DNA of 32,000 bases from Pirellula staleyi DSM 6068 (lineage in GTDB: Bacteria > Planctomycetota > Planctomycetia > Pirellulales > Pirellulaceae). Of this stretch, positions 16,965 to 26,706 are shown in pieces. The DNA lies in the NCBI GenBank assembly GCA_000025185.1, contig CP001848.1, forward strand, positions 5,880,001 to 5,912,000, in the 5' to 3' direction. The position numbers and the translations under genes are program-made. Within the stretch, counting starts at the first letter, position 1, and each line of letters opens with the position of its first letter. The notes under the pieces were generated by a model. That model was not told the origin of the DNA, did no database searches, and saw only the letters and a program-made list of their open reading frames with translations.

Positions 16965-17756
16965 ATGCTACTCTCACGACTCTTGATGACTTCGATCTGT
17001 GCTGGGCTTCTGATTTCGATAGCCGCACCAGCTGAGGCCAACCCCAACTTTCCGGGCTACCTCGGGGTGTATGTTTTCGAGGATTCCGATGGGATGCAAA
17101 TCAGCGGATTCATTCCCGATACCCCTGCCGAGAAACTCGCCAGTTTTGGCGACATCAGCACCGGTGACACGATTCTGAAGCTCGGTGGAATGCGGACTCG
17201 AACGCTGCAGGAACTTCGCCACGCACGCAATTCGATTCCGATGAACAGTGAGGCCAAGATGGTGCTGGTCGACCGCTGGGGCGATGTTTATCACGTTTGG
17301 ATTGGCCGCTCGCAAGCGATGGCCGCCATGCAAGCCCGAGGTGCCGCACCACGGTCGATGCCCGACACTTTTTCTCGGGGTGGACGTGGTGAAGGAAACG
17401 AAGGTGACTTCCGCAACAGCCGCGACCGAGCTCCTGGTGACCGTGGTCCGGGCCAAGATGGAGATGGCAGACGAGGTGACGATCGTAACGATAATCGGGG
17501 TGGCAACCGTGACAACAACCGAATCGAGGACCTCGATGATCTCCGCGAAGAACTCCGCGACAACTTGCGAGACCGTAGCAACGGGCAATCGAGTGGTCGC
17601 AGTGGCAACTGGAGTGGTCGACTCGACCTGGGACAGCTGCTCGATCTGGGGCAACTCCGTGGCAACGATCGGAGCGGTGACGACCGGAATGAAGGTCGAG
17701 ATGACAATGATCAGGATGACGATAACGACGATGATTTCCGTCCTCGCCGGAACTAG
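16965..17756 (+). CDS. Secreted PDZ-domain protein with a long Asp/Arg/Asn/Gly low-complexity tail
   Basis: The signal peptide is MLLSRLLMTSICAGLLISIAAPAEA. A PDZ-like core follows (GYLGVYVFEDSDGMQISGFIPDTPAEKLA...GDTILKLGG). From about nt 17380 the sequence is almost only D/R/N/G/E. Confidence 0.75.
   Translation: MLLSRLLMTSICAGLLISIAAPAEANPNFPGYLGVYVFEDSDGMQISGFIPDTPAEKLASFGDISTGDTILKLGGMRTRTLQELRHARNSIPMNSEAKMVLVDRWGDVYHVWIGRSQAMAAMQARGAAPRSMPDTFSRGGRGEGNEGDFRNSRDRAPGDRGPGQDGDGRRGDDRNDNRGGNRDNNRIEDLDDLREELRDNLRDRSNGQSSGRSGNWSGRLDLGQLLDLGQLRGNDRSGDDRNEGRDDNDQDDDNDDDFRPRRN
17622..17657 (+). repeat. Imperfect 18-nt tandem duplication (LDLGQL x2) inside the low-complexity tail
   Basis: ctcgacctgggacagctg is followed by ctcgatctggggcaactc. 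They are 14/18 identical, in frame, and both encode LDLGQL. Confidence 0.6.
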
Positions 17757-18295
17757 TTCGCTCCTTGAATCCCAAGGGAACAGGACGCCACAGCTGATAC
17801 AAACATGGATGCTCCGACGAAGGTAAATTTGACCAGACGCTGATGGGGAAGTCGTGGCGCATGATGCCCCGACTTCCGATGGGACGGGCCTCCGAAACAG
17901 ATGCGGCCTACGTTTCCCAGTGACTTTCGCGTCTTTTCTCACGGGAATTCTTTCCCCGCACTGTCTTCTAAAAACTCTGGGCAGTGCTCAGCTGCGTGAA
18001 ACGCTACAAACGGCAAAGTTCGCGCAGCAGGATGCTCATCGCTGCGACCTATCGGGCCGATCTAGCAAGCACACCTAAGCTTTGCGCCATCAAGTGCATC
18101 TGTCCGACATTTGTCAAACGCGCATCGATCGCGCCGACCTTCAGAATCGGCAATGGCTGCATGCATGGTACCTGGGGGATCATGCAGGAGTCCTCTGGAG
18201 TTGTGCGTCGATGACACAACTAGCGCGATGGGCTCGGATTGCCCTCACGAAACGCTGCTCTGCATGTTTCTACCTGCCAGTCGAGGTTTGGTCGC

Positions 18296-19525
18296 ATGGA
18301 TGGGACACTCCCCCTCGGTGAGCCTGCGCGCTCCCATGGTTTACTACCGTTTCTACTCTCACGAAGACGCTGGATCGCTGCACAAAAGCTTGCCGCCATG
18401 ATCCTGGCCATCGCCGGTGGCGTTATTTCGCTGGCGAGCGATCTGCACGCGCAGTCAAGTTGGCCAGAGCCAGCGCTGCTTTTACCGATGCCCACTGATG
18501 GTCCGGTGCGATCGGAAGTGATCCAGCTTTGTCAGCATCTTCCAGCTCCCGACCAGGGATCGTATTACGACCCCGCCACGATGGGCCCGCCAACAGCCTA
18601 CGACACCGCCACTTACTCGGCGGGTATGCCCAACGCTCCAGCTCCCGTGCTGATGCAGGAGCCGATGTATTACGAAGAAAACGCCGAAAATGTCCACTAC
18701 TGCGAGTGGGGCTGCGATGAGCGCTGGATCGATAACTTCAGCGTCTTCACCGGGCTTGAAGGCTCGAAACAGCCGCAAGACTTTGGCGTGAATGCCCACT
18801 TTGGTGGTCGCGTGGCGACCAATCTCGGCATCGCGCTTCATCGCGATTTGGGGATTGGTTTTCAGATCGGAACTTCGATCAACGCCACTGCTTCTGCAGT
18901 GCAGGTGCTCGAACTGATCGGTGCGGGAACCGGACGCGTTCAAAGCTTCACCACGGTTGGCCTATTTCAGCGCACCGATGGTGGCTGGATCTGGGGCGTC
19001 GGCTACGACTTTTTGTACCAGGAGTACACCGACGTAGCGACCTTGGGACAAGCACGCATTCGGCTCGGCTACGAGTTGACCGAGAACAGCGAAATCGGCG
19101 CGCGGGCGATGATTGCCACACAAGATGCCCAGAACGTCGATTTCGGCGGAGTCGATGTAACACTCGAAGCGATCGACCAGGCACATCTATACTGGCGCAA
19201 GTTCTGGGCTAGTCGCGGTTTCACCGAATGCTGGATCGGTATTTCGGAAGGGCATAGCGAGGCCAACATCGTCACCGGCGATCGTCCCGAACTCGACAAC
19301 CAGTTTGTGTTTGGCTCGAGTTTTCATCAGCCGCTGAACGACTATCTCGCGCTCTATGGCGAAGCCAATCTGATGATGCCGAGCGATACCGGAACCGTCG
19401 ACGCCTTTTTAGGCTTCGAATGCTATCCGGGTGGTGGTTCGTGGAGTTCGCAGCGCAACCGCTATAACCCAGCGCTCGGCGTGGCTAACAACACCAACTT
19501 CTCAGTCAACCTGTTCCGCCAATAG
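18296..19525 (+). CDS. Hypothetical secreted protein, putative outer-membrane beta-barrel (possibly BBP7-like)
   Basis: A signal-like segment SRRRWIAAQKLAAMILAIAGGVISLASDLHA favours the start at 18296 (alternatives 18239 TTG and 18398 ATG). The C-terminal ~300 aa show alternating hydrophobic/polar strands rich in G, Y and F. The family assignment is unverified. Confidence 0.6.
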   Translation: MDGTLPLGEPARSHGLLPFLLSRRRWIAAQKLAAMILAIAGGVISLASDLHAQSSWPEPALLLPMPTDGPVRSEVIQLCQHLPAPDQGSYYDPATMGPPTAYDTATYSAGMPNAPAPVLMQEPMYYEENAENVHYCEWGCDERWIDNFSVFTGLEGSKQPQDFGVNAHFGGRVATNLGIALHRDLGIGFQIGTSINATASAVQVLELIGAGTGRVQSFTTVGLFQRTDGGWIWGVGYDFLYQEYTDVATLGQARIRLGYELTENSEIGARAMIATQDAQNVDFGGVDVTLEAIDQAHLYWRKFWASRGFTECWIGISEGHSEANIVTGDRPELDNQFVFGSSFHQPLNDYLALYGEANLMMPSDTGTVDAFLGFECYPGGGSWSSQRNRYNPALGVANNTNFSVNLFRQ

Positions 19526-19740
19526 CCGTGCGGATCATCGGGCTCTTGCCACATGTAGCGTCTATGCGGCACGCGGCGAGTTTGACTTCATCGATCCAGG
19601 ACCTACGTATGAGAGTAGGCCTGGAAAGTCTGGAACATTGCGTGGGCAATTGACAGCTGGAGGGGCCTGCGAGCCAACGTTTGCACTTGGCAAGCGTTTG
19701 GCGATTCGGCCCCCTGCCGCCAACCCTAGCGCAAAAACTC

Positions 19741-22700
19741 ATGTCGCTTATCGCCCGAGGCTCGACTTCGTCCGGATTGTATCCGACCAGCGCGGAGGGT
19801 CCGATCGTTGGTCGCTACCATATCCTGGGGTGCCTCAGCACCACGGCCGATGGTGTCGCCTATCACGCGATCGATGTCGCCGACAGCATGCCGGTCGAAC
19901 TCCGGGTCCTGACGAGTCATCGTGAGGATAGTGCGCGACGCCGCGAACTTTTCGCGCGCTATCGCCTGCTGAGTCTTGCGAGTTCTCCTTCGATCCGACC
20001 TCTGCTCGCCTGCGAAGAGCATGCGGTTCCCCCGCTCCTTGCGATCGCATTTCCGCGGGCAACGCCGCTGACCGAATACGACGCTACCACACAAACCTTT
20101 GACGCTCGCCTGCGTTTAGCTCGTTCGCTTGTCGCCGCTCTGTTGCAAGCGCATCGCGTCGGACTCGTGCATGGGGGCATCCAGCCCTCTGCAATTCAAG
20201 TCACTCAGCAGGGATATGCTTCGCTCGATTTCACCGGCTGGGGTTTGACGCTCGAAGAGCAACAATCAGCCGACGCTGCGCGCGATCTCACCGCCACCAT
20301 TGCGATCGTACGCTGGCTCCTCGACTCCGACTTGAGCGTGTTGCCGCAACTCGCCGAGTACCTCACCGACTTTGAGCGATCCCACGCCCCCAGCGAGTTC
20401 GCTGTGGTGGAACTACTCGCCGCGCTCGATGGCAATGCCATACCGACGGCCGAGACCGACTTCTCGAAAACGGGGGAAGTCTCCATCGAGCTCTTCGCTC
20501 CCCCAGATGGGATGCATCCCGCGCGCGAACTTGCCCCCGATAAGACAGCCGAGGTGCCAATCGCGCCGATGGCTGGATCAGGGGCCGAGAGTCTGCTCGC
20601 GAACTTACCCGATGCCACGCATCATCAGCCGGTGTTTGGCAATGCGGCAGCTGGAGACGGAGGACTGCTGAATGCCGGCGAAACCTATGTCATCGACACC
20701 TGGAGTTCGCAAGCGCCGGTTGCATCGCGACATCGAACTGCAGAGATCACAGTCGGCACGACCCTCGGTCGCTACCAAATTGAAAGTCGACTCGGTGAAG
20801 GTGGGATGGGAGTTGTTTACAAAGCGATCGATCAATCGAGTGGACAAGTCGTCGCGCTGAAGGTGCTGCATCCGACACTTGTCGGTCGCGGGAACTCGCT
20901 CAAGCGATTTCGCAAAGAAGCTCGCATGCTGGCAGCGGTGAACAATCCGCTCGTCACCAACCTCTATGAAGCCAATGAAGATCAAGGGCTGCACTTCCTG
21001 GCGATGGAATTCATCGACGGGATCGATCTCAAAAAAGTTCTTGGAAGATTAAATCGCCTCCCTGAGTCGCTCGCACTCAAGGTTGTAGCCGACGTCGCCC
21101 GCGCCCTGGCCGACGCCCACGAAAAAGGAATCGTCCACCGCGACATCAAGCCCGAAAACATCTTGGTGCTCGATGGAGAAGCACTCCTGGCCGAAGATCT
21201 CGCCGCAACCAGTGATCCGACGCAAACGCTGGTCCTCGAGCCAACGCAATTTCCCGAGCGGCTGAAGATCAAGCTTTCGGATTTCGGAATTGCGCGACAA
21301 GTAAACCAGTCGGAATCGCTCGCCGCCACCCAGGCTGGGGCCATTCTCGGCACTCCCTACTACATGGCCCCCGAGCAATGCCAGGGCAAAGGGGAGATTG
21401 TTCCGCCGACCGACATCTATGCCCTCGGCTGCACGCTCTTCGAACTCCTTGCCGGTCGGCCGCCGTTTCTCGCCGAAGATGCGATGAAAATCGCATCGAT
21501 GCATTGCTTCGAAGCCCCCCCTGCACTGCGAAAAATCAACCCTGAAGTCAGCGAGCAGACACAGCGTTTGGTCGAGCGCTGCCTGGCAAAGAAACCAGCC
21601 GATCGCTTTGCTGATGCAGCTCATTTTCTCACGGAGCTCGATCAGCTTCGTGGAAGCGAATCGCGTAACTTTCAGCTGCATCCGGTGCTGCCACGACACG
21701 ATCCGGGCCAGCTCTTCCGTGCAGACTTTAGCTGGGATTTGCAAAGCACCGCTGCAGAACTTTGGCCTCTGGTTTCTAACACCGAGCGGCTGAACCGAGC
21801 GATGGGTTTGCCCAGTGTGGTCTATCGCACCGAGCACGATCCGGAACGTGGCACACGGAAGTTCGGCAGCTTTCGCCTCGCTGGCATGACCATCAGCTGG
21901 GAAGAACATCCGTTTGAGTGGGTCGAAGGTCGTCGCATGGGGATCTTGCGCGAGTTCACCCAAGGCCCCTTCAAGTGGTTCCTCAGCACGGTCGAACTGA
22001 CGCCACTTCCCGAAGGAGGAACACGACTCGATCATCGCATTCGGATCGAACCTCGCAACTTCATCGGATGGGCCGTGGCCAACATGGAAGTGAAATGGAA
22101 AGGGCAAGGGAATCTCGATCGTGTCTATCGGCGCATCGATCAAACGCTTCTCGACCGGCCCAGTGGACGCGATCTTGCCGACCCTTTTGAATCACCTCAG
22201 CCCCTTTCGAGGACTTCTCTTAAGCGACTCGAAGATCGCGCGCAACTACTCATCGCACGCGGGGTACGTCGCGAGGTAGCTGATCTGCTCGAGAAGTTCC
22301 TTCGTGAAGCGTCGGCCCAAGAGGTGGCGAAGATTCGGCCCCTTACGCTTGCTAACAGACTCGATCTCGACCCGAGTGAGCTCACCGAAGCCTTGCTGCA
22401 CGCCGCCGCTGAGGGGCTAGTGACACTTCACTGGGATGTGCTGTGCCCCACGTGTCGCGTACCTAGTGATGCGTGTGACACGCTGCGCGAGATCGAAAAA
22501 CATAATCGATGTGAAGCCTGCAATCTGAATTTCGAACTTGATCTGGCCAGCAGTGTCGAGCTGGTGTTCCGAGTCCATCCGGAAATTCGCGCAGCCGATA
22601 CAGGGATGTACTGCATTGGTGGTCCCGAACACTCACCCCATGTGGCAGCGCAAGTTCGCCTCGAAGCTGGTGAACGGATGGAACTTCAGCTCGCTCTGGA

Positions 22701-23577
22701 GGAAGGTGAGTATCTGATTCGTACTCCCCAGATGCGGCAGCAAGTGAAGCTGCGCGTTCGCGCTGTCGGACCGGGACGCTCAGCGGTCGAGTTCTCTCCC
22801 ACAATGGACGACCGCCGAGAACTTCAGCTACGCGCCGTAAATCAGCTTCTGGAGCTCTCTAACGCCTCAGCAGCAACGATCGTGGTGCGTGTCGAACGGA
22901 CCATTGCTCGGGGGGATGTCGTGACCGCCGCGCAAGCCTCTTCGCTGGCACTGTTTCGCGAACTCTTTCCGCAAGAGATGCTCGCCCCTGGTCAGCTGAT
23001 GAGCGTGCAAACGATCACGATCCTAGCCGCAGCGATCGACAATCTGGATGAGCTCTTCGCCACGCTTGGAGACGCCGGAACCTTTGGGGTGATCGAGCGC
23101 CACTATCAGCTGCTCGATCAAGCCGCCCGACGCCATCGCGGGACGATTGTCAAATTCGCCCCCGACGCTGTGATCGCCAGCTTTGCCGATCCTGCCGGGG
23201 CACTTCGGGCTGCGATTGATACACTCGGCACGCTGCGTCACGAAGCCTCGCAACGGGCCGAGGAGTTGGGGAAACCGCCGATTCCCACGCGGCTGAAAAT
23301 TGCCTTGCATCGTGGTCCAGCGCTCGTCACCACGCTGCAAGGACGACTCGACTACTTCGGTACCACCGAGCGCAGCGCAGCTATCTTGGCACAACGGGCT
23401 GCCGCTGGCGACTTGCTCGTTACCGATGCACTTTCGGGCGATGCTGCCTTGGCCGATGTAGTGGCCGAGCACCAGCTCGAAGTCGAACTCACTTCCCCTG
23501 GAGTTAAGCTCGATCGCATCTCCATCGTCGAGCGTTTGCAACTCCCCTCGAACTCGTCACTGGAGCAAGACCGATGA
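19741..23577 (+). CDS. Multidomain Ser/Thr protein kinase: pseudokinase + Hanks kinase + SRPBCC-like + Cys-cluster (DUF5939-like) + degenerate class III cyclase-homology domain
   Basis: The canonical kinase has LGEGGMGVVYKA, VALK (K at 20860), HRDIKPEN (21136-), DFG (21280-) and GTPYYMAPE. The other domains are described in the findings. I chose the ATG at 19741 (the track's TTG at 19681 is possible). No TM segment is seen. Confidence 0.9.
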   Translation: MSLIARGSTSSGLYPTSAEGPIVGRYHILGCLSTTADGVAYHAIDVADSMPVELRVLTSHREDSARRRELFARYRLLSLASSPSIRPLLACEEHAVPPLLAIAFPRATPLTEYDATTQTFDARLRLARSLVAALLQAHRVGLVHGGIQPSAIQVTQQGYASLDFTGWGLTLEEQQSADAARDLTATIAIVRWLLDSDLSVLPQLAEYLTDFERSHAPSEFAVVELLAALDGNAIPTAETDFSKTGEVSIELFAPPDGMHPARELAPDKTAEVPIAPMAGSGAESLLANLPDATHHQPVFGNAAAGDGGLLNAGETYVIDTWSSQAPVASRHRTAEITVGTTLGRYQIESRLGEGGMGVVYKAIDQSSGQVVALKVLHPTLVGRGNSLKRFRKEARMLAAVNNPLVTNLYEANEDQGLHFLAMEFIDGIDLKKVLGRLNRLPESLALKVVADVARALADAHEKGIVHRDIKPENILVLDGEALLAEDLAATSDPTQTLVLEPTQFPERLKIKLSDFGIARQVNQSESLAATQAGAILGTPYYMAPEQCQGKGEIVPPTDIYALGCTLFELLAGRPPFLAEDAMKIASMHCFEAPPALRKINPEVSEQTQRLVERCLAKKPADRFADAAHFLTELDQLRGSESRNFQLHPVLPRHDPGQLFRADFSWDLQSTAAELWPLVSNTERLNRAMGLPSVVYRTEHDPERGTRKFGSFRLAGMTISWEEHPFEWVEGRRMGILREFTQGPFKWFLSTVELTPLPEGGTRLDHRIRIEPRNFIGWAVANMEVKWKGQGNLDRVYRRIDQTLLDRPSGRDLADPFESPQPLSRTSLKRLEDRAQLLIARGVRREVADLLEKFLREASAQEVAKIRPLTLANRLDLDPSELTEALLHAAAEGLVTLHWDVLCPTCRVPSDACDTLREIEKHNRCEACNLNFELDLASSVELVFRVHPEIRAADTGMYCIGGPEHSPHVAAQVRLEAGERMELQLALEEGEYLIRTPQMRQQVKLRVRAVGPGRSAVEFSPTMDDRRELQLRAVNQLLELSNASAATIVVRVERTIARGDVVTAAQASSLALFRELFPQEMLAPGQLMSVQTITILAAAIDNLDELFATLGDAGTFGVIERHYQLLDQAARRHRGTIVKFAPDAVIASFADPAGALRAAIDTLGTLRHEASQRAEELGKPPIPTRLKIALHRGPALVTTLQGRLDYFGTTERSAAILAQRAAAGDLLVTDALSGDAALADVVAEHQLEVELTSPGVKLDRISIVERLQLPSNSSLEQDR

Positions 23578-25601
23578 ACACTGCCGCATCCTCGCTGCAG
23601 GTTTGGTACCTCCATAGCATTGGCGAAGCGAGTAGCATTGCGCGCCAGGTAACAATCACGCCACTGCCATTTCGCGTGGGACGAAGTTCCGACGCGCAGC
23701 TGTGGATTCCCTCGTCGAGCGTCTCCAAAATTCATGCCGAGTTTTTTGAACGCGATGGTCAGCTGTACTTGCGTGACCTGGGGAGCACCAACGGCACGTT
23801 TGTGAATGCCGAACGCATTCGTGGCGATGTAGCCGTGCAATCGGGCGATATCGTTCACTTTTCGACACTCGGATTTCAGATCGATTGCTGGGCAGGCAAC
23901 TTGCTTGGCAACACGATTGAAGAAAACCCATTTCAAACGGCACTCGCCGCGGAAATCGACGAGCGACGTCGCGCGGAAGAGTTGCTCTGGAACAGTCAAG
24001 CACGCTGGCGAGCGGTATTCGACAACGCAGCCGATGGGATCATCACCCTCAACGAATCGCTGCAGGTGGAAACCTACAACACTGCTGCGCAGCGGCTGTT
24101 CGGCTACTCGTGCGAGCAGATCGTAGGACTACAGATCTCGCTCCTGATGCCAGGTGTGGAACTCGACAGCTCCAATGCCGCCGCTCCCCAAGCGGGCCGA
24201 CGGATCGAGACACTCTGTCGCCGCAGCGATGGGAGCATGTTCCTTGCAGATGTGTCGCTCGGAACGGTTCCGCAAAGCAAGAGCCATGGCTATATCGCTA
24301 TTATTCGCGACATTACCCGTCAGCGACGCGATCAACAAGAGCTCGAAGAAGCCAAGCGTGCAGCCGAGTCGGCCAGTCATGCGAAGGACGAATTTCTGGC
24401 CAACATGAGCCACGAGATTCGCACCCCCATTACGGCGATTCTGGGTTTCAGCGATCTCTTGATTCACGATCAACGACTGCAGAATGAATTTCCCAATTGG
24501 TTTGAGTCGGCGCAGACCGTCTATCGAAACGGCGAGCATTTGCTGTCGCTCATTAACGATGTGCTGGACCTTTCGAAGATCGAAGCGGGGCGTCTGCTGA
24601 TTGAGTCGATTCGCTGCTCGCCCCTCGAAATCGTGCGCGACGTTTGTCAGCTGATGTCACTCAAAGCTTCGGAGAAAGACCTGACGCTCGACGTTTCCTT
24701 TCGCACCGATATTCCTGTGACAGCGGTCACCGATCCGACACGCATCAAGCAGGTGCTGATCAATCTGGTAGGGAATGCCGTGAAGTTTACGCCGCGCGGC
24801 AGTGTGCAAATCACGGTCGACATTCACAGCAGTGGTCACGCCACGATGCTGGCGGTGGAGGTGACCGATACCGGCATCGGCATGACCTCGGCGCAGATCG
24901 ACCGACTCTTTCAGCCTTTCACGCAAGCCGATGCGTCGACCACGCGCCGCTTTGGTGGCACGGGGCTTGGCCTGGTGATTTCGAAACGGATTGTCGAAGC
25001 GCTCGGTGGTCAGGTTTCGGTGGTCAGTCAGAGTGGCGAAGGGAGCACGTTTCGCGTGCTGCTCCCGCTGATTGTGCCGACAGAGAGTGCGTGGTTAACG
25101 CCATCCGAAGCACTGACAGCACTTCGCGAGCCTCTCCCTCGCCCCCAGATTTCGGCTGGTCCGCAGCTGACGGGGCGGATCTTGGTAGCCGACGATGGAA
25201 TCGATAATCAGCGACTCTTGCGGCAGATTCTGACGCGCGCGGGAGCCGATGTGACGGTGGCAGAGAATGGACTCGAAGCGGTTCGAGCATGGCAAGCGGC
25301 CAATTTGGCAGGGTGTCCGTTTGCACTGATTTTGATGGATATGCAGATGCCGGAACTGGATGGATACCAGGCGACCCGCAGATTGCGCGAGTTGGGGGCA
25401 ACCATTCCGATCATAGCGCTCACTGCGCACGCCATGACTGGCGATCGCGACCTATGTTTACAGGCAGGGTGCGACGATTACCTGACCAAGCCGTTTGAAC
25501 GCAAGCGTCTCCTCGAGACATTACGCAAACGACTTCTCGAAACACCCCTACTCTCGATAGATCCACATCACGATGGAACCCTCCGCACAAACGCGCCCTA
25601 A
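23574..25601 (+). CDS. FHA-domain hybrid sensor histidine kinase (FHA-PAS-HisKA-HATPase_c-REC)
   Basis: The FHA domain has FRVGRSS (R at 23682), SKIH and STNGTF. A PAS-like segment spans about 23980-24340. The H-box is FLANMSHEIRTP (His at 24411). The N/G boxes are NLVGNAVKFT, DTGIGM and GGTGLGL. The receiver has ILVADD and ILMDMQMP (Asp at 25338) and TKPF. The start ATGA overlaps the upstream stop. Confidence 0.9.
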   Translation: MNTAASSLQVWYLHSIGEASSIARQVTITPLPFRVGRSSDAQLWIPSSSVSKIHAEFFERDGQLYLRDLGSTNGTFVNAERIRGDVAVQSGDIVHFSTLGFQIDCWAGNLLGNTIEENPFQTALAAEIDERRRAEELLWNSQARWRAVFDNAADGIITLNESLQVETYNTAAQRLFGYSCEQIVGLQISLLMPGVELDSSNAAAPQAGRRIETLCRRSDGSMFLADVSLGTVPQSKSHGYIAIIRDITRQRRDQQELEEAKRAAESASHAKDEFLANMSHEIRTPITAILGFSDLLIHDQRLQNEFPNWFESAQTVYRNGEHLLSLINDVLDLSKIEAGRLLIESIRCSPLEIVRDVCQLMSLKASEKDLTLDVSFRTDIPVTAVTDPTRIKQVLINLVGNAVKFTPRGSVQITVDIHSSGHATMLAVEVTDTGIGMTSAQIDRLFQPFTQADASTTRRFGGTGLGLVISKRIVEALGGQVSVVSQSGEGSTFRVLLPLIVPTESAWLTPSEALTALREPLPRPQISAGPQLTGRILVADDGIDNQRLLRQILTRAGADVTVAENGLEAVRAWQAANLAGCPFALILMDMQMPELDGYQATRRLRELGATIPIIALTAHAMTGDRDLCLQAGCDDYLTKPFERKRLLETLRKRLLETPLLSIDPHHDGTLRTNAP

Positions 25602-26706
25602 AGCGTCGTGTATTCCACTTGCCGTTGGCGAGAAGGCCAATTGGCTCCTGGTTGCTTGCTCGGCAGCGACCTCGGGGCTGGCTGGTTTCGAACTCGGCAC
25701 GCGCCCACTTCGTATCGGACGTACGCCCGACATGGATGTTTGCTTGCCACTCGGCAGCATCTCCAAGCATCACGCCACCATCACCCCGCAATCGATGGGG
25801 CTGGTGATTCGTGATAACGGCAGCACCAATGGGACATTCCTCAACGGCGTGCGCGCGACCACCGATATGCTCCTGCGCGAAGGGGACATCGTGCAGTTTG
25901 CCAGTGAAGCGTTTCGACTGTCACGACCTTTGGCAACCTCGCCGATGCACACCGTGGAGACAATTTCTGGCAACTTGGCGATGACGCTAGTGCATTTTGA
26001 TCGACTCCTGAACGAGCCCGCTGTGGTGCCGTTCTATCAGTCGATCGTCGACCTGGCGAGCGCCGAGACTCAGGCCTACGAAGTGCTGGCTCGCAGCAGC
26101 GTGCAAGGGCTCGAAACACCTCGCGCGATGTTCGAAGCGGCTGAACAACTGAGCCTCGAGCGGGAACTCTCCACCGTGATGCGCCGCGAAGGCTCGATCA
26201 TTGGAAGCGGGATCAAAGGCTCGCCGATGCTGTTCCTCAACACGCATCCGATGGAGATGGCAGATCAAAAGCTAATCGATTCGCTCCATGATTTGCGACG
26301 CATGTTGCCTGTACAGCCACTCACGATCGAAATCCACGAACACGCCATCACAAGTCTCGATCAGCTGCGCCGTTTTCGGGCCGTGCTCGACGAACTCGAT
26401 ATGCGACTGGCTTACGACGACTTTGGTGTCGGACAAGCGCGGCTTGTGGAACTCAGCGAAGTGCCACCCGATGTGGTGAAGTTCGATATTCAGCTGATTC
26501 GCAATATCGATCGCGCCCCACCCAGCCGCCAGCGGACACTTTCGCAGCTAGTGAATCTGGTAAAAGATCTCGGTGTGAAAACCTTAGCCGAAGGTGTCGA
26601 AACCGACGCCGAACGCCTCACTTGCCTTGAGCTCGGATTCGAACTCGGGCAGGGCTTTTATTTCAGCCGCCCCGCGCCGGTTGCTTCGCTCGAGAGCAAT
26701 CATTGA
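25573..26706 (+). CDS. FHA-domain EAL-type cyclic-di-GMP phosphodiesterase
   Basis: The FHA domain has LRIGRTP (R at 25720), SKHH and STNGTF. The EAL domain has FYQSIVDL, YEVLARS (26080-26088), LFLNTHP, EIHE, AYDDFGVGQA, VKFD, AEGVET and GQGFYFSRP. The only in-frame start ahead of the FHA core is the ATG at 25573, which overlaps the upstream gene by 29 nt. Confidence 0.85.
   Translation: MEPSAQTRPKASCIPLAVGEKANWLLVACSAATSGLAGFELGTRPLRIGRTPDMDVCLPLGSISKHHATITPQSMGLVIRDNGSTNGTFLNGVRATTDMLLREGDIVQFASEAFRLSRPLATSPMHTVETISGNLAMTLVHFDRLLNEPAVVPFYQSIVDLASAETQAYEVLARSSVQGLETPRAMFEAAEQLSLERELSTVMRREGSIIGSGIKGSPMLFLNTHPMEMADQKLIDSLHDLRRMLPVQPLTIEIHEHAITSLDQLRRFRAVLDELDMRLAYDDFGVGQARLVELSEVPPDVVKFDIQLIRNIDRAPPSRQRTLSQLVNLVKDLGVKTLAEGVETDAERLTCLELGFELGQGFYFSRPAPVASLESNH

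Follow-up and report, generated by a model that had tools for sequence, protein, structure and literature searches.

A Hanks-type kinase overlapped by two FHA-headed enzymes in Pirellula staleyi: a putative branched Ser/Thr-phosphorylation module

The analysis of three plus-strand genes that overlap one another in Pirellula staleyi DSM 6068 points to what is probably a cytoplasmic Ser/Thr-phosphorylation module with two branches. Gene 1 would act as a soluble sensor kinase, and both effectors, a hybrid histidine kinase and a predicted phosphodiesterase, would take their input through a homologous cassette formed by an FHA domain and a linker threonine. In the mechanism that we favour, the kinase would phosphorylate the linker Thr (T114 in the histidine kinase and T127 in the phosphodiesterase), and an FHA domain, either from that subunit or from its partner, would then bind the phosphorylated residue and so re-arrange the output-domain dimer. 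EAL enzymes and histidine kinases both function as dimers, and in DgcB, GarA, and OdhI the FHA domain binds the protein's own phosphorylated tail. FHA docking on an autophosphorylated T269 of the kinase linker may also gather the enzyme and its substrates, as in PknG-GarA. The net outcome would be that one kinase input sets c-di-GMP hydrolysis and the His-Asp phosphorelay together. We infer the kinase-substrate assignments, the direction of regulation, and that the genes are co-transcribed.

Locus layout and the multidomain kinase

Gene 1 (19741..23577, + strand) encodes a 1278-aa soluble multidomain Ser/Thr kinase. Its open reading frame has possible starts at 19681 and 19741, of which 19741 agrees with the 1278-aa GenBank protein (P0121), and the product is 100% identical to the GenBank entry [quoted passage not shown]. 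Open reading frames and Pfam matches define gene 2 (23574..25601, + strand) as a 675-aa soluble hybrid histidine kinase with the architecture FHA-PAS-HisKA-HATPase_c-REC and gene 3 (25573..26706, + strand) as a 377-aa soluble FHA-EAL protein. By direct reading of the sequence, the gene 1 stop and the gene 2 start share an ATGA (23574..23577, + strand), and genes 2 and 3 overlap by 29 nt (25573..25601, + strand), with the gene 3 ATG at 25573 and the gene 2 TAA at 25599-25601. The physical coupling described in the initial annotation is real at both junctions and is kept in the nearest relative (L004/L005), in which gene lengths and both overlaps (4-nt and 29-nt) are identical at 77% nucleotide identity. 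The annotation's description of three proteins lacking a transmembrane helix was also borne out, with no 19-residue window reaching transmembrane-like hydrophobicity (maximum Kyte-Doolittle value of 1.42), and its domain assignments (kinase, FHA, His-Asp relay, and EAL) all hold in a Pfam scan. Judged by their sequences, the catalytic cores of the kinase, the histidine kinase, and the EAL domain all look competent. Upstream lies a gene for a DUF6666 protein (18239..19525, + strand; Pfam DUF6666, E 3e-24) whose residues around position 51 form a hydrophobic segment resembling a signal peptide; L004/L005 and 15 of 83 other kinase loci also have a DUF6666 gene beside the kinase, and the protein may be an accessory component of the module. 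No phosphatase, HPt protein, or separate response regulator is encoded within the window, that is, the whole 32,000-nucleotide stretch of DNA that was analysed.

The central Hanks-type kinase domain of gene 1 (residues 345-624; 20773..21612, + strand) matches Pfam Pkinase (PF00069) at E 1.5e-50 and 172.5 bits against a cutoff of 31.7, which places it among the Hanks-type Ser/Thr kinases. Every kinase motif is present (G352-E-G-G-M-G at 352-357, K374, HRD466-468, N473, DFG514-516, and APE543-545), as expected of the intact-looking kinase first described here. A disordered linker of ~90 residues (244-333; 20470..20739, + strand; pLDDT <50) precedes this domain and holds the motif D-K-T269-A-E-V. 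Position 269 is Thr in 15 of 27 homologues and is, with P326, one of the two best-conserved linker positions, and a D-x-T motif with a mostly hydrophobic +3 residue is found repeatedly upstream of the kinase domain across the gene 1 family, making T269 a candidate FHA docking or autophosphorylation site. On the C-terminal side, an SRPBCC/START-like region (residues 670-794; 21748..22122, + strand), matched by Polyketide_cyc2 below the Pfam cutoff (E 2.7e-4), is very strongly conserved in the kinase family (WPLVSNTE and WEEHPFEW) and represents a putative ligand-binding sensor. The DUF5939 region that follows (22264..22920, + strand; Pfam DUF5939 at residues 842-951, E 4e-18) contains a Cys4 motif (C902, C905, C924, and C927) which, like C958, H964, and H967, is invariant in the family alignments (A2 and A4), and this region is a putative zinc ribbon or metal site.

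Two further domains of gene 1, an N-terminal pseudokinase and a C-terminal degenerate cyclase, are additions to the initial annotation. The pseudokinase domain (residues 21-235; 19801..20445, + strand) gave no match in the Pfam scan, and its AlphaFold2 model (pLDDT about 90+) retrieved the PknA/PknB kinase domains as best Foldseek matches (E 5e-11 to about 1e-10), with the Rv3910 pseudokinase also matched. Its motifs are degenerate, with VELR55 for VAIK, H144-G-G for HRD, and D163-F-T for DFG, such that model and motifs together describe a kinase fold in which the catalytic Lys, Asp, and DFG Gly are replaced. The class III nucleotidyl cyclase domain (23014..23457, + strand) aligns to the Ma1120 cyclase (4wp8) at E 6e-9, with FTD changed to AAA (loss of the first metal Asp), the transition-state N to T, and R to I; with these catalytic residues lost and a PF00211 score of 13 bits against a cutoff of 21.9, it does not qualify as an active class III cyclase. 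Four of the gene 1 regions, namely, the pseudokinase, the SRPBCC-like region, DUF5939 with its Cys4 motif, and the dead cyclase, probably serve the kinase for input or regulation.

Two effectors with a common input cassette

The protein encoded by gene 2 contains FHA (residues 34-96, E 1.7e-18), PAS (144-248), HisKA (270-339), HATPase_c (386-499), and REC (536-650) domains, and no HPt domain was found in it by Pfam. Its input cassette (residues 4-126; 23583..23951, + strand) combines a W-x-L strand and the FHA domain with a linker that contains T114 (N-T-I-E-E), and is followed by the Pfam-defined PAS/HisKA/HATPase_c/REC output part (24003..25523, + strand). The output part has the full set of hybrid histidine kinase motifs (H280 in the H-box, G1 DTGIGM432, G2 GTGLGL462, D540/D541, D589, T617, and K639), and HisKA, HATPase_c, and REC score 67, 105, and 95 bits, respectively. 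Gene 3 begins with an FHA domain (residues 47-109, E 4e-17) and continues into an EAL domain (residues 146-367, E 1.6e-38). AlphaFold2 models its input cassette (25642..25968, + strand) with a confident FHA domain (24-117) and a linker (121-132) at pLDDT <50 that carries T127. The EAL domain (25975..26697, + strand; AlphaFold2 pLDDT >90; 132.9 bits to PF00563) matches the BlrP1 and RocR EAL structures by sequence and has a complete catalytic set, E170, R174, N223, E253, E256, D282, D283, K303, E340, E343, and Q360, all invariant in 30 homologues. These residues correspond to the catalytic positions known from RocR and TBD1265, and gene 3 is accordingly predicted from its sequence to be an active c-di-GMP phosphodiesterase. 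Its relatives in the databases number >2000, and the best 120 of them all have the FHA+EAL architecture.

The phosphothreonine-contact residues that had been reported for both FHA heads are indeed kept in gene 2 (G36-R37, S51..H54, and S71-T-N73-G74) and gene 3 (G49-R50, S64..H67, and S84-T-N86-G87), upstream of outputs that were likewise confirmed as a His-Asp phosphorelay in one protein and an EAL domain in the other. The two FHA domains score 67.3 and 62.8 bits against the PF00498 cutoff of 20.7, and the Arg, Ser, His, and Asn-Gly positions are invariant in 30 homologues; by profile and contact residues, both are of the phosphothreonine-binding type and are predicted to be phosphothreonine readers.

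The resemblance between the two effectors extends beyond the FHA fold. Aligned to the FHA-EAL family profile with hhalign, gene 2 residues 4-126 gave a probability of 99.8% and an E-value of 2.4e-28 over 123 gap-free columns that include the linker, and an HMM of the family N-module scored the gene 2 cassette at 130 bits and the gene 3 cassette at 117 bits. This sequence comparison shows that the input cassettes of genes 2 and 3 share a common origin. The T127 position is Thr in 201 of 233 FHA-EAL family members (86%) while neighbouring residues vary, and the equivalent linker Thr is found in 3/3 FHA-histidine kinases examined. The cassette thus has the first feature of a self-binding FHA switch of the DgcB/GarA type, namely, a conserved Thr that lies in the same chain as the FHA domain, within a flexible stretch. 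The +3 residue is E, V, or L in the FHA-EAL family and T in gene 3, so that no defined FHA-binding motif is evident, and the conserved Thr could have a structural instead of a phospho-acceptor role. By analogy with DgcB or GarA, we infer that the FHA domain and the linker Thr may together form a phospho-switch that is portable. The initial annotation had the kinase writing phosphothreonine marks that two effectors read in parallel; this stands as one option only, since a lone conserved Thr in both post-FHA linkers is also compatible with effectors that become phosphorylated and bind their own mark.

Gene neighbourhoods and competing explanations

Of 69 evaluable loci with a gene 1-type kinase, 11 have an FHA-EAL gene directly downstream (binomial P about 3e-18, assuming a chance adjacency rate of 0.002), and in several the two genes overlap by 4 nt; most of these kinase loci (58/69) have no adjacent FHA gene. 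Viewed from the FHA-EAL side, a Ser/Thr kinase is encoded within 10 kb in 11 of about 26 GTDB loci and is the next gene in 7, with about half of the FHA-EAL loci having no kinase nearby. Three unrelated architectures are represented among these kinases. FHA-EAL genes also adjoin three other kinase types: kinase-tubulin-like fusions, acidobacterial kinases, and a PP2C-kinase fusion. Pirellula-clade genomes carry only about 20-60 Ser/Thr kinases each (PMC11032199). The adjacency of kinase and FHA-EAL therefore recurs from either side, the synteny of the pair is shown to be non-random, and this gene order strongly supports a functional link from the kinase to the FHA-EAL protein. The full trio is present only in the P. 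staleyi window and the L004/L005 relative, and thus does not recur as a module. No FHA-histidine kinase was found in the 83 gene 1-type kinase loci from other genomes and metagenomes, and the two more distant FHA-histidine-kinase homologues that could be placed (51% and 42% identity) are isolated, with neither a kinase nor an FHA-EAL gene in their vicinity; the trio is therefore a lineage-specific elaboration of a two-gene module. Conservation of the neighbourhood, on which the initial proposal depended, consequently holds for the pair and not broadly for the trio.

This distribution, together with the histidine kinase's own PAS sensor identified by Pfam, is what would be expected if only the kinase and FHA-EAL protein formed a functional unit, the FHA-histidine kinase being a secondary insertion that responds to another kinase or to its PAS domain and has only the transcript in common with them. 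We consider this unlikely, as the insertion is precisely phased between the upstream ATGA and the 29-nt downstream overlap and has been kept at 77% identity, and the histidine kinase carries a cassette of the same type as that of its FHA-EAL neighbour, with the better family-profile score of the two. It is very improbable, moreover, that the FHA domains work without any need for phosphorylation, as a plain interaction or dimerisation fold, like the FHA-like domain of YscD, with kinase adjacency reflecting co-regulation only. Gene 3 does score just above the 33.2-bit cutoff of Yop-YscD_cpl (34.4 bits) and no phosphatase gene was found nearby, but the canonical FHA model is far ahead (63-67 bits), the invariant phosphothreonine residues are present in both effectors, and repeated adjacency to differing kinase types is hard to explain without phospho-signalling.

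The model of the initial annotation, in which the effectors are not substrates and the FHA domains dock on the kinase's own phosphothreonines (T269 or the activation loop), with recruitment or allostery switching the outputs, is rather unlikely in our estimation. It draws on the disordered 90-residue kinase linker, the standing of T269 among its two best-conserved positions, and the recurrence of the D-x-T motif in the family. PknG, a soluble kinase, offers a precedent, as its autophosphorylated disordered regions recruit the FHA protein GarA, which is then phosphorylated and binds its own phosphothreonine (PMC12189002). Nevertheless, the kinases found paired with FHA-EAL proteins have at least four unrelated architectures, on each of which a docking site would need to evolve afresh; T269 is conserved in just 56% of homologues, and the feature that travels with the FHA domain, in the FHA-histidine kinases as well, is the effector's own linker Thr.

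Precedents and significance

The domain order of gene 2 (FHA-PAS-HisKA-HATPase-REC) is shared with Myxococcus xanthus EspA (FHA-PAS-HK-REC), and a link to Ser/Thr kinases has been proposed for both. EspA, a hybrid histidine kinase with a receiver domain, is thought to work with the Ser/Thr kinases PktA5 and PktB8 (PMC4320627). Gene 2 was rejected as an EspA orthologue on a weak match to NCBIfam NF052573 (145.3 bits against a cutoff of 1400). The P. staleyi system differs further in that its kinase is a soluble pseudokinase-kinase-SRPBCC-DUF5939-pseudocyclase protein whose gene overlaps that of the histidine kinase, the histidine kinase has an FHA-EAL-type cassette, and the operon contains a second FHA effector (EAL). 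Rv3910 (MviN) is a pseudokinase that serves as an FHA platform with FhaA (PknB-Rv3910-FhaA), and it appears, as noted above, among the fold matches of the gene 1 N-terminus. GarA and OdhI regulate metabolic enzymes as free-standing FHA proteins, whereas in P. staleyi the FHA domains are fused to signalling enzymes; PknG resembles gene 1 in also having a Cys4 metal domain, and neither PknG-GarA/OdhI nor PknB-Rv3910-FhaA has sequence orthology with the P. staleyi proteins. Gene 1 is a full-length member of the "Ser/Thr kinase / class 3 adenylate cyclase" fusion family (Pkinase + DUF5939 + Guanylate_cyc), with 38-50% identity to >100 planctomycete proteins, but its cyclase domain is without key catalytic residues and fails the Pfam threshold. 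The closest parallel for an N-terminal FHA domain fused to a c-di-GMP enzyme, as in gene 3, is Bdellovibrio DgcB (FHA-GGDEF), in which the FHA domain binds a conserved Thr in its own flexible segment, phosphorylation of that Thr activates the enzyme, and the kinase is only suspected (PMC6733907). DgcB synthesizes c-di-GMP through GGDEF, in contrast to the EAL-type degradation of gene 3, and has its Thr in an N-terminal tail and not in the interdomain linker after the FHA domain. In P. staleyi, a candidate kinase is encoded next door.

Most of what is known about cross-talk among Hanks-type kinases, two-component systems, and c-di-GMP comes from isolated examples, EspA and DgcB among them. In the literature searched, no description of the gene 1 fusion family or its FHA-EAL link was found, and the FHA-EAL family and the branched operon appear undescribed. 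The earlier suggestion that the trio is not a described pathway therefore appears to hold for the operon itself, while the concept has precedents in EspA, DgcB, and PknG-GarA. FHA-EAL proteins occur by the thousands across Planctomycetota and are also present in Acidobacteriota and Proteobacteria. It is quite possible, and is put forward here tentatively, that they constitute an uncharacterised class of Ser/Thr-phosphorylation-gated c-di-GMP phosphodiesterases, with a cassette that is portable across EAL and hybrid histidine kinase outputs and at least four kinase architectures.

On that reading, the P. staleyi operon would be a naturally occurring branch point at which one kinase feeds two outputs and Hanks-kinase, two-component, and c-di-GMP signalling come together. 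Because one locus encodes the candidate kinase along with both readers, the usual problem of which kinase feeds an FHA effector, as encountered with DgcB, would be solved here, and given the size of the FHA-EAL family and the lack of any paper found on it, a single biochemical study in P. staleyi could provide annotation for thousands of genes. Such a study could show how Ser/Thr phosphorylation governs the breakdown of c-di-GMP in planctomycetes, a group in which signalling is little understood, and the shared cassette would provide a clean natural example of signalling-module reuse.

Architecture of the overlapping genes

The sequence reveals three overlapping ORFs on the + strand, gene 1 at 19741..23577, gene 2 at 23574..25601 and gene 3 at 25573..26706, and both the ATGA overlap between genes 1 and 2 and the 29-nt overlap between genes 2 and 3 that the initial annotation described can be read directly from it. 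The cluster is bordered upstream, across a 215-nt gap, by a DUF6666 gene (18239-19525, with a signal-peptide-like segment) and downstream, across a 47-nt gap, by a convergent fructose-1,6-bisphosphatase gene, and the surrounding genes (DUF1501, PSD1, DUF1559, and DUF6666) form a neighbourhood characteristic of planctomycetes. Both strands carry long, mutually overlapping ORFs at 16965-17942 (one of 263 aa on the + strand; two of 322 and 235 aa on the - strand), and a Pfam scan of the two longest returned no match. An Rfam search of the window matched no family, with no riboswitch or other known RNA upstream, promoter and terminator scans gave fewer matches than shuffled sequence, and no phosphatase, HPt, or response regulator was found in the window. 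Pfam HMM scanning confirmed the kinase, FHA, histidine kinase, and EAL assignments made earlier, and the proposed lack of TM helices was confirmed as well, with no transmembrane-like segment in any of the three.

The gene 1 product (1278 aa) matches 'serine/threonine protein kinase [Pirellula staleyi DSM 6068]' with 100% identity; it is one of a large family of planctomycete proteins annotated in the sources as 'serine/threonine protein kinase/class 3 adenylate cyclase'. Its strong Pkinase match (residues 345-624), in which all catalytic kinase motifs are intact, is followed by a sub-threshold SRPBCC/Polyketide_cyc2 match (670-794) and by DUF5939 (842-951). Pfam gave no match in the N-terminal 340 residues; residues 21-235 fold confidently in AlphaFold2 (26 homologues), and Foldseek groups this model with bacterial Ser/Thr kinase domains, among them PknA (E 5e-11) and the Rv3910 pseudokinase. 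The family consensus keeps the kinase motif order with altered motifs (VAIK becomes VELR, HRD becomes H-G-x, and DFG becomes DFT), and model and consensus together identify this domain as a pseudokinase. The linker that follows (residues 244-333), predicted to be disordered, contains T269, which is among its two best-conserved residues, the position being Thr in 15 of the 27 homologues; family members repeatedly show a D-x-T motif whose +3 position is mostly hydrophobic. Within DUF5939, the cysteines C902, C905, C924, and C927 (CxxC...CxxC; 22444-22521) and the positions C958, H964, and H967 (YCxGxPxHxPHV; 22612-22641) are invariant in all aligned homologues. This pattern points to a zinc-ribbon or else a metal/redox site, and is reminiscent of PknG's rubredoxin domain. 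The C-terminus aligns with the class III cyclase Ma1120 (E 6e-9) without the first metal-binding Asp and without the transition-state Asn and Arg; with these key catalytic residues lost and a PF00211 score below threshold, an active cyclase was ruled out.

Gene 2 encodes an FHA-PAS-HisKA-HATPase_c-REC protein, an FHA-headed hybrid histidine kinase (FHA-HK) in which all phosphotransfer residues are present and an HPt domain is absent. Its score against the EspA model (145 bits, cutoff 1400) indicates that it is not an EspA orthologue. Gene 3 is FHA-EAL by Pfam, an architecture shared by the best 120 of >2000 family matches. All residues known to be required for EAL catalysis are present, each invariant in 30 homologues. 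AlphaFold2 predicts two confident domains separated by a low-confidence linker (residues 121-132), and a structure database search found no solved structure covering FHA plus EAL.

Conservation of the kinase and FHA-EAL pairing

The neighbourhoods were examined from both partners. Scanning metagenomes with the SRPBCC-DUF5939-cyclase half of gene 1, together with three looked-up loci, yielded 83 kinase loci, and FHA-EAL is the next gene downstream of the kinase in 11 of the 69 that could be evaluated, several with 4-nt overlaps. Seen from FHA-EAL, about 26 GTDB genome loci were informative among the matches listed; a kinase lies within 10 kb in 11 of these 26 (P ~0.005) and is the immediate neighbour in 7 of 26 (P ~2e-6), with chance rates derived from the only ~20-60 Ser/Thr kinases counted in Pirellula-clade genomes (PMC11032199). 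The link between the kinase and FHA-EAL is thus well supported by comparative genomics. A single relative (77% nucleotide and 83% FHA-EAL protein identity) was found to share the full trio, its overlaps identical, and an FHA-histidine kinase was found at none of the 83 other kinase loci, so the suggested three-gene arrangement is not widely conserved and is a local elaboration. Since FHA-EAL recurs beside the kinase, the conserved unit is kinase plus FHA-EAL, often with DUF6666, and the FHA-HK is a lineage-specific insertion between them. DUF6666 adjoins the kinase in 15 of 83 loci (including L086, L088, L091, L109, L111, L113, L117-L119, L122, L124, and L127-L129) and in the relative carrying the trio (L004/L005), lying upstream, downstream, or divergent, whether FHA-EAL is present or not. 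The DUF6666 protein may thus be an additional partner of the DUF5939-type kinase family, perhaps as an envelope protein.

Other kinases also accompany FHA-EAL among the matches listed. A cytoplasmic Pkinase+Tubulin_2 protein of ~815-1190 aa lies nearby in eight planctomycete loci, and the fusion was Pfam-confirmed in seven (L008 12555-16055, L009 1540-5106, L011 6550-9972, L013 4885-8139, L016 11212-14478, L032 11083-14406, and L034 5952-8396), the eighth being a partial ORF with a weak kinase match only (L010 1-1991). Kinase and FHA-EAL are thus paired recurrently in a second way, for which no description was found. Divergently transcribed Ser/Thr kinases occur at two acidobacterial loci, and at one Comamonadaceae locus (MAG, L026) a PP2C phosphatase-Ser/Thr kinase fusion (61-1605) lies directly upstream of FHA-EAL (1692-2804), thereby placing writer and eraser in one protein adjoining the reader.

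The FHA-HK had seemed unique to the P. staleyi lineage. When the first 270 residues of gene 2 were used as query, a word-indexed search gave FHA-EAL proteins only and missed the P. staleyi protein itself; negatives from such searches are unreliable when the query is a multidomain fragment. An exhaustive representative search recovered this protein and two full-length homologues (51% and 42% identity), and the claim of uniqueness was therefore withdrawn, leaving only the operon position as lineage-specific. Both homologues carry the same FHA-linker cassette, and both are orphans: neither a kinase nor an FHA-EAL gene lies within 8 kb of them. An apparent alternative architecture came from MAG GCA_002483025.1 (DLHC01000002.1), which is 98% identical to the window and diverges (L001 8809) at the H-box coding sequence FLANMSHEIRTP of gene 2 (24381-24401), upstream of which a dCache/HAMP membrane sensor and cysS replace the kinase and the FHA-PAS part. 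The breakpoint lies exactly in the conserved H-box, the same point at which two independent Logan assemblies stop (L002/L003 contig ends); chimeric assembly, joining two paralogous histidine-kinase genes, is the probable cause, and real recombination a less likely one.

A shared FHA cassette and its candidate phosphorylation switch

Residues 4-126 of gene 2 align gap-free to the FHA-EAL family profile (probability 99.8%, E 2.4e-28), a stretch that begins at the N-terminal W-x-L strand, spans the FHA domain and reaches into the linker, and the family N-module HMM scores gene 2 (130 bits) above gene 3 (117 bits). Recent duplication of the gene 3 FHA into gene 2 was ruled out by their ~37% identity, each being nearer to other family members. 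A GarA-like Thr in the N-terminal tail of FHA-EAL was dropped, as these tails are unconserved, and the post-FHA linker was therefore examined. Apart from a single Thr (T127 of gene 3), kept in 201 of 233 FHA-EAL proteins, this disordered linker varies; an equivalent Thr occurs in each of the three FHA-HKs compared (N-T114-I-E-E, D-T-A-V, and T-T-V-D). That the Thr is kept though the downstream domain has been replaced shows that it goes with the FHA module and not with the structure of EAL.

FHA domain and linker Thr are thus best read as a candidate phospho-switch cassette, in which the gene 1 kinase would phosphorylate the linker Thr of the effectors, the FHA domain would bind the pThr of its own chain or of the dimer partner, and this binding would re-arrange the dimer of the output domain; docking on the autophosphorylated kinase linker may help. 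Less probably, the effectors could be reader-only docking partners of the kinase, the histidine kinase could be wired independently of it, or the FHA domains could be phospho-independent. The second Pkt kinase associated with EspA is presumably PktB8. PMC4320627 writes PktA8, and the histidine-kinase branch of the proposed switch resembles EspA with PktA5 and this second kinase. The switch also resembles PknG-GarA (PMC12189002), and the FHA-effector cassette is proposed to bind its own Thr similarly to DgcB, in which the FHA domain of an FHA-GGDEF enzyme binds a Thr in the tail of the same protein (PMC6733907). The earlier suggestion of novelty stands in part: in the literature searched, no paper mentions FHA-EAL or DUF5939, but the logic has clear precedents in DgcB, PknG-GarA, and EspA. 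The main value of the analysis is that it names a kinase-reader pair open to direct testing.
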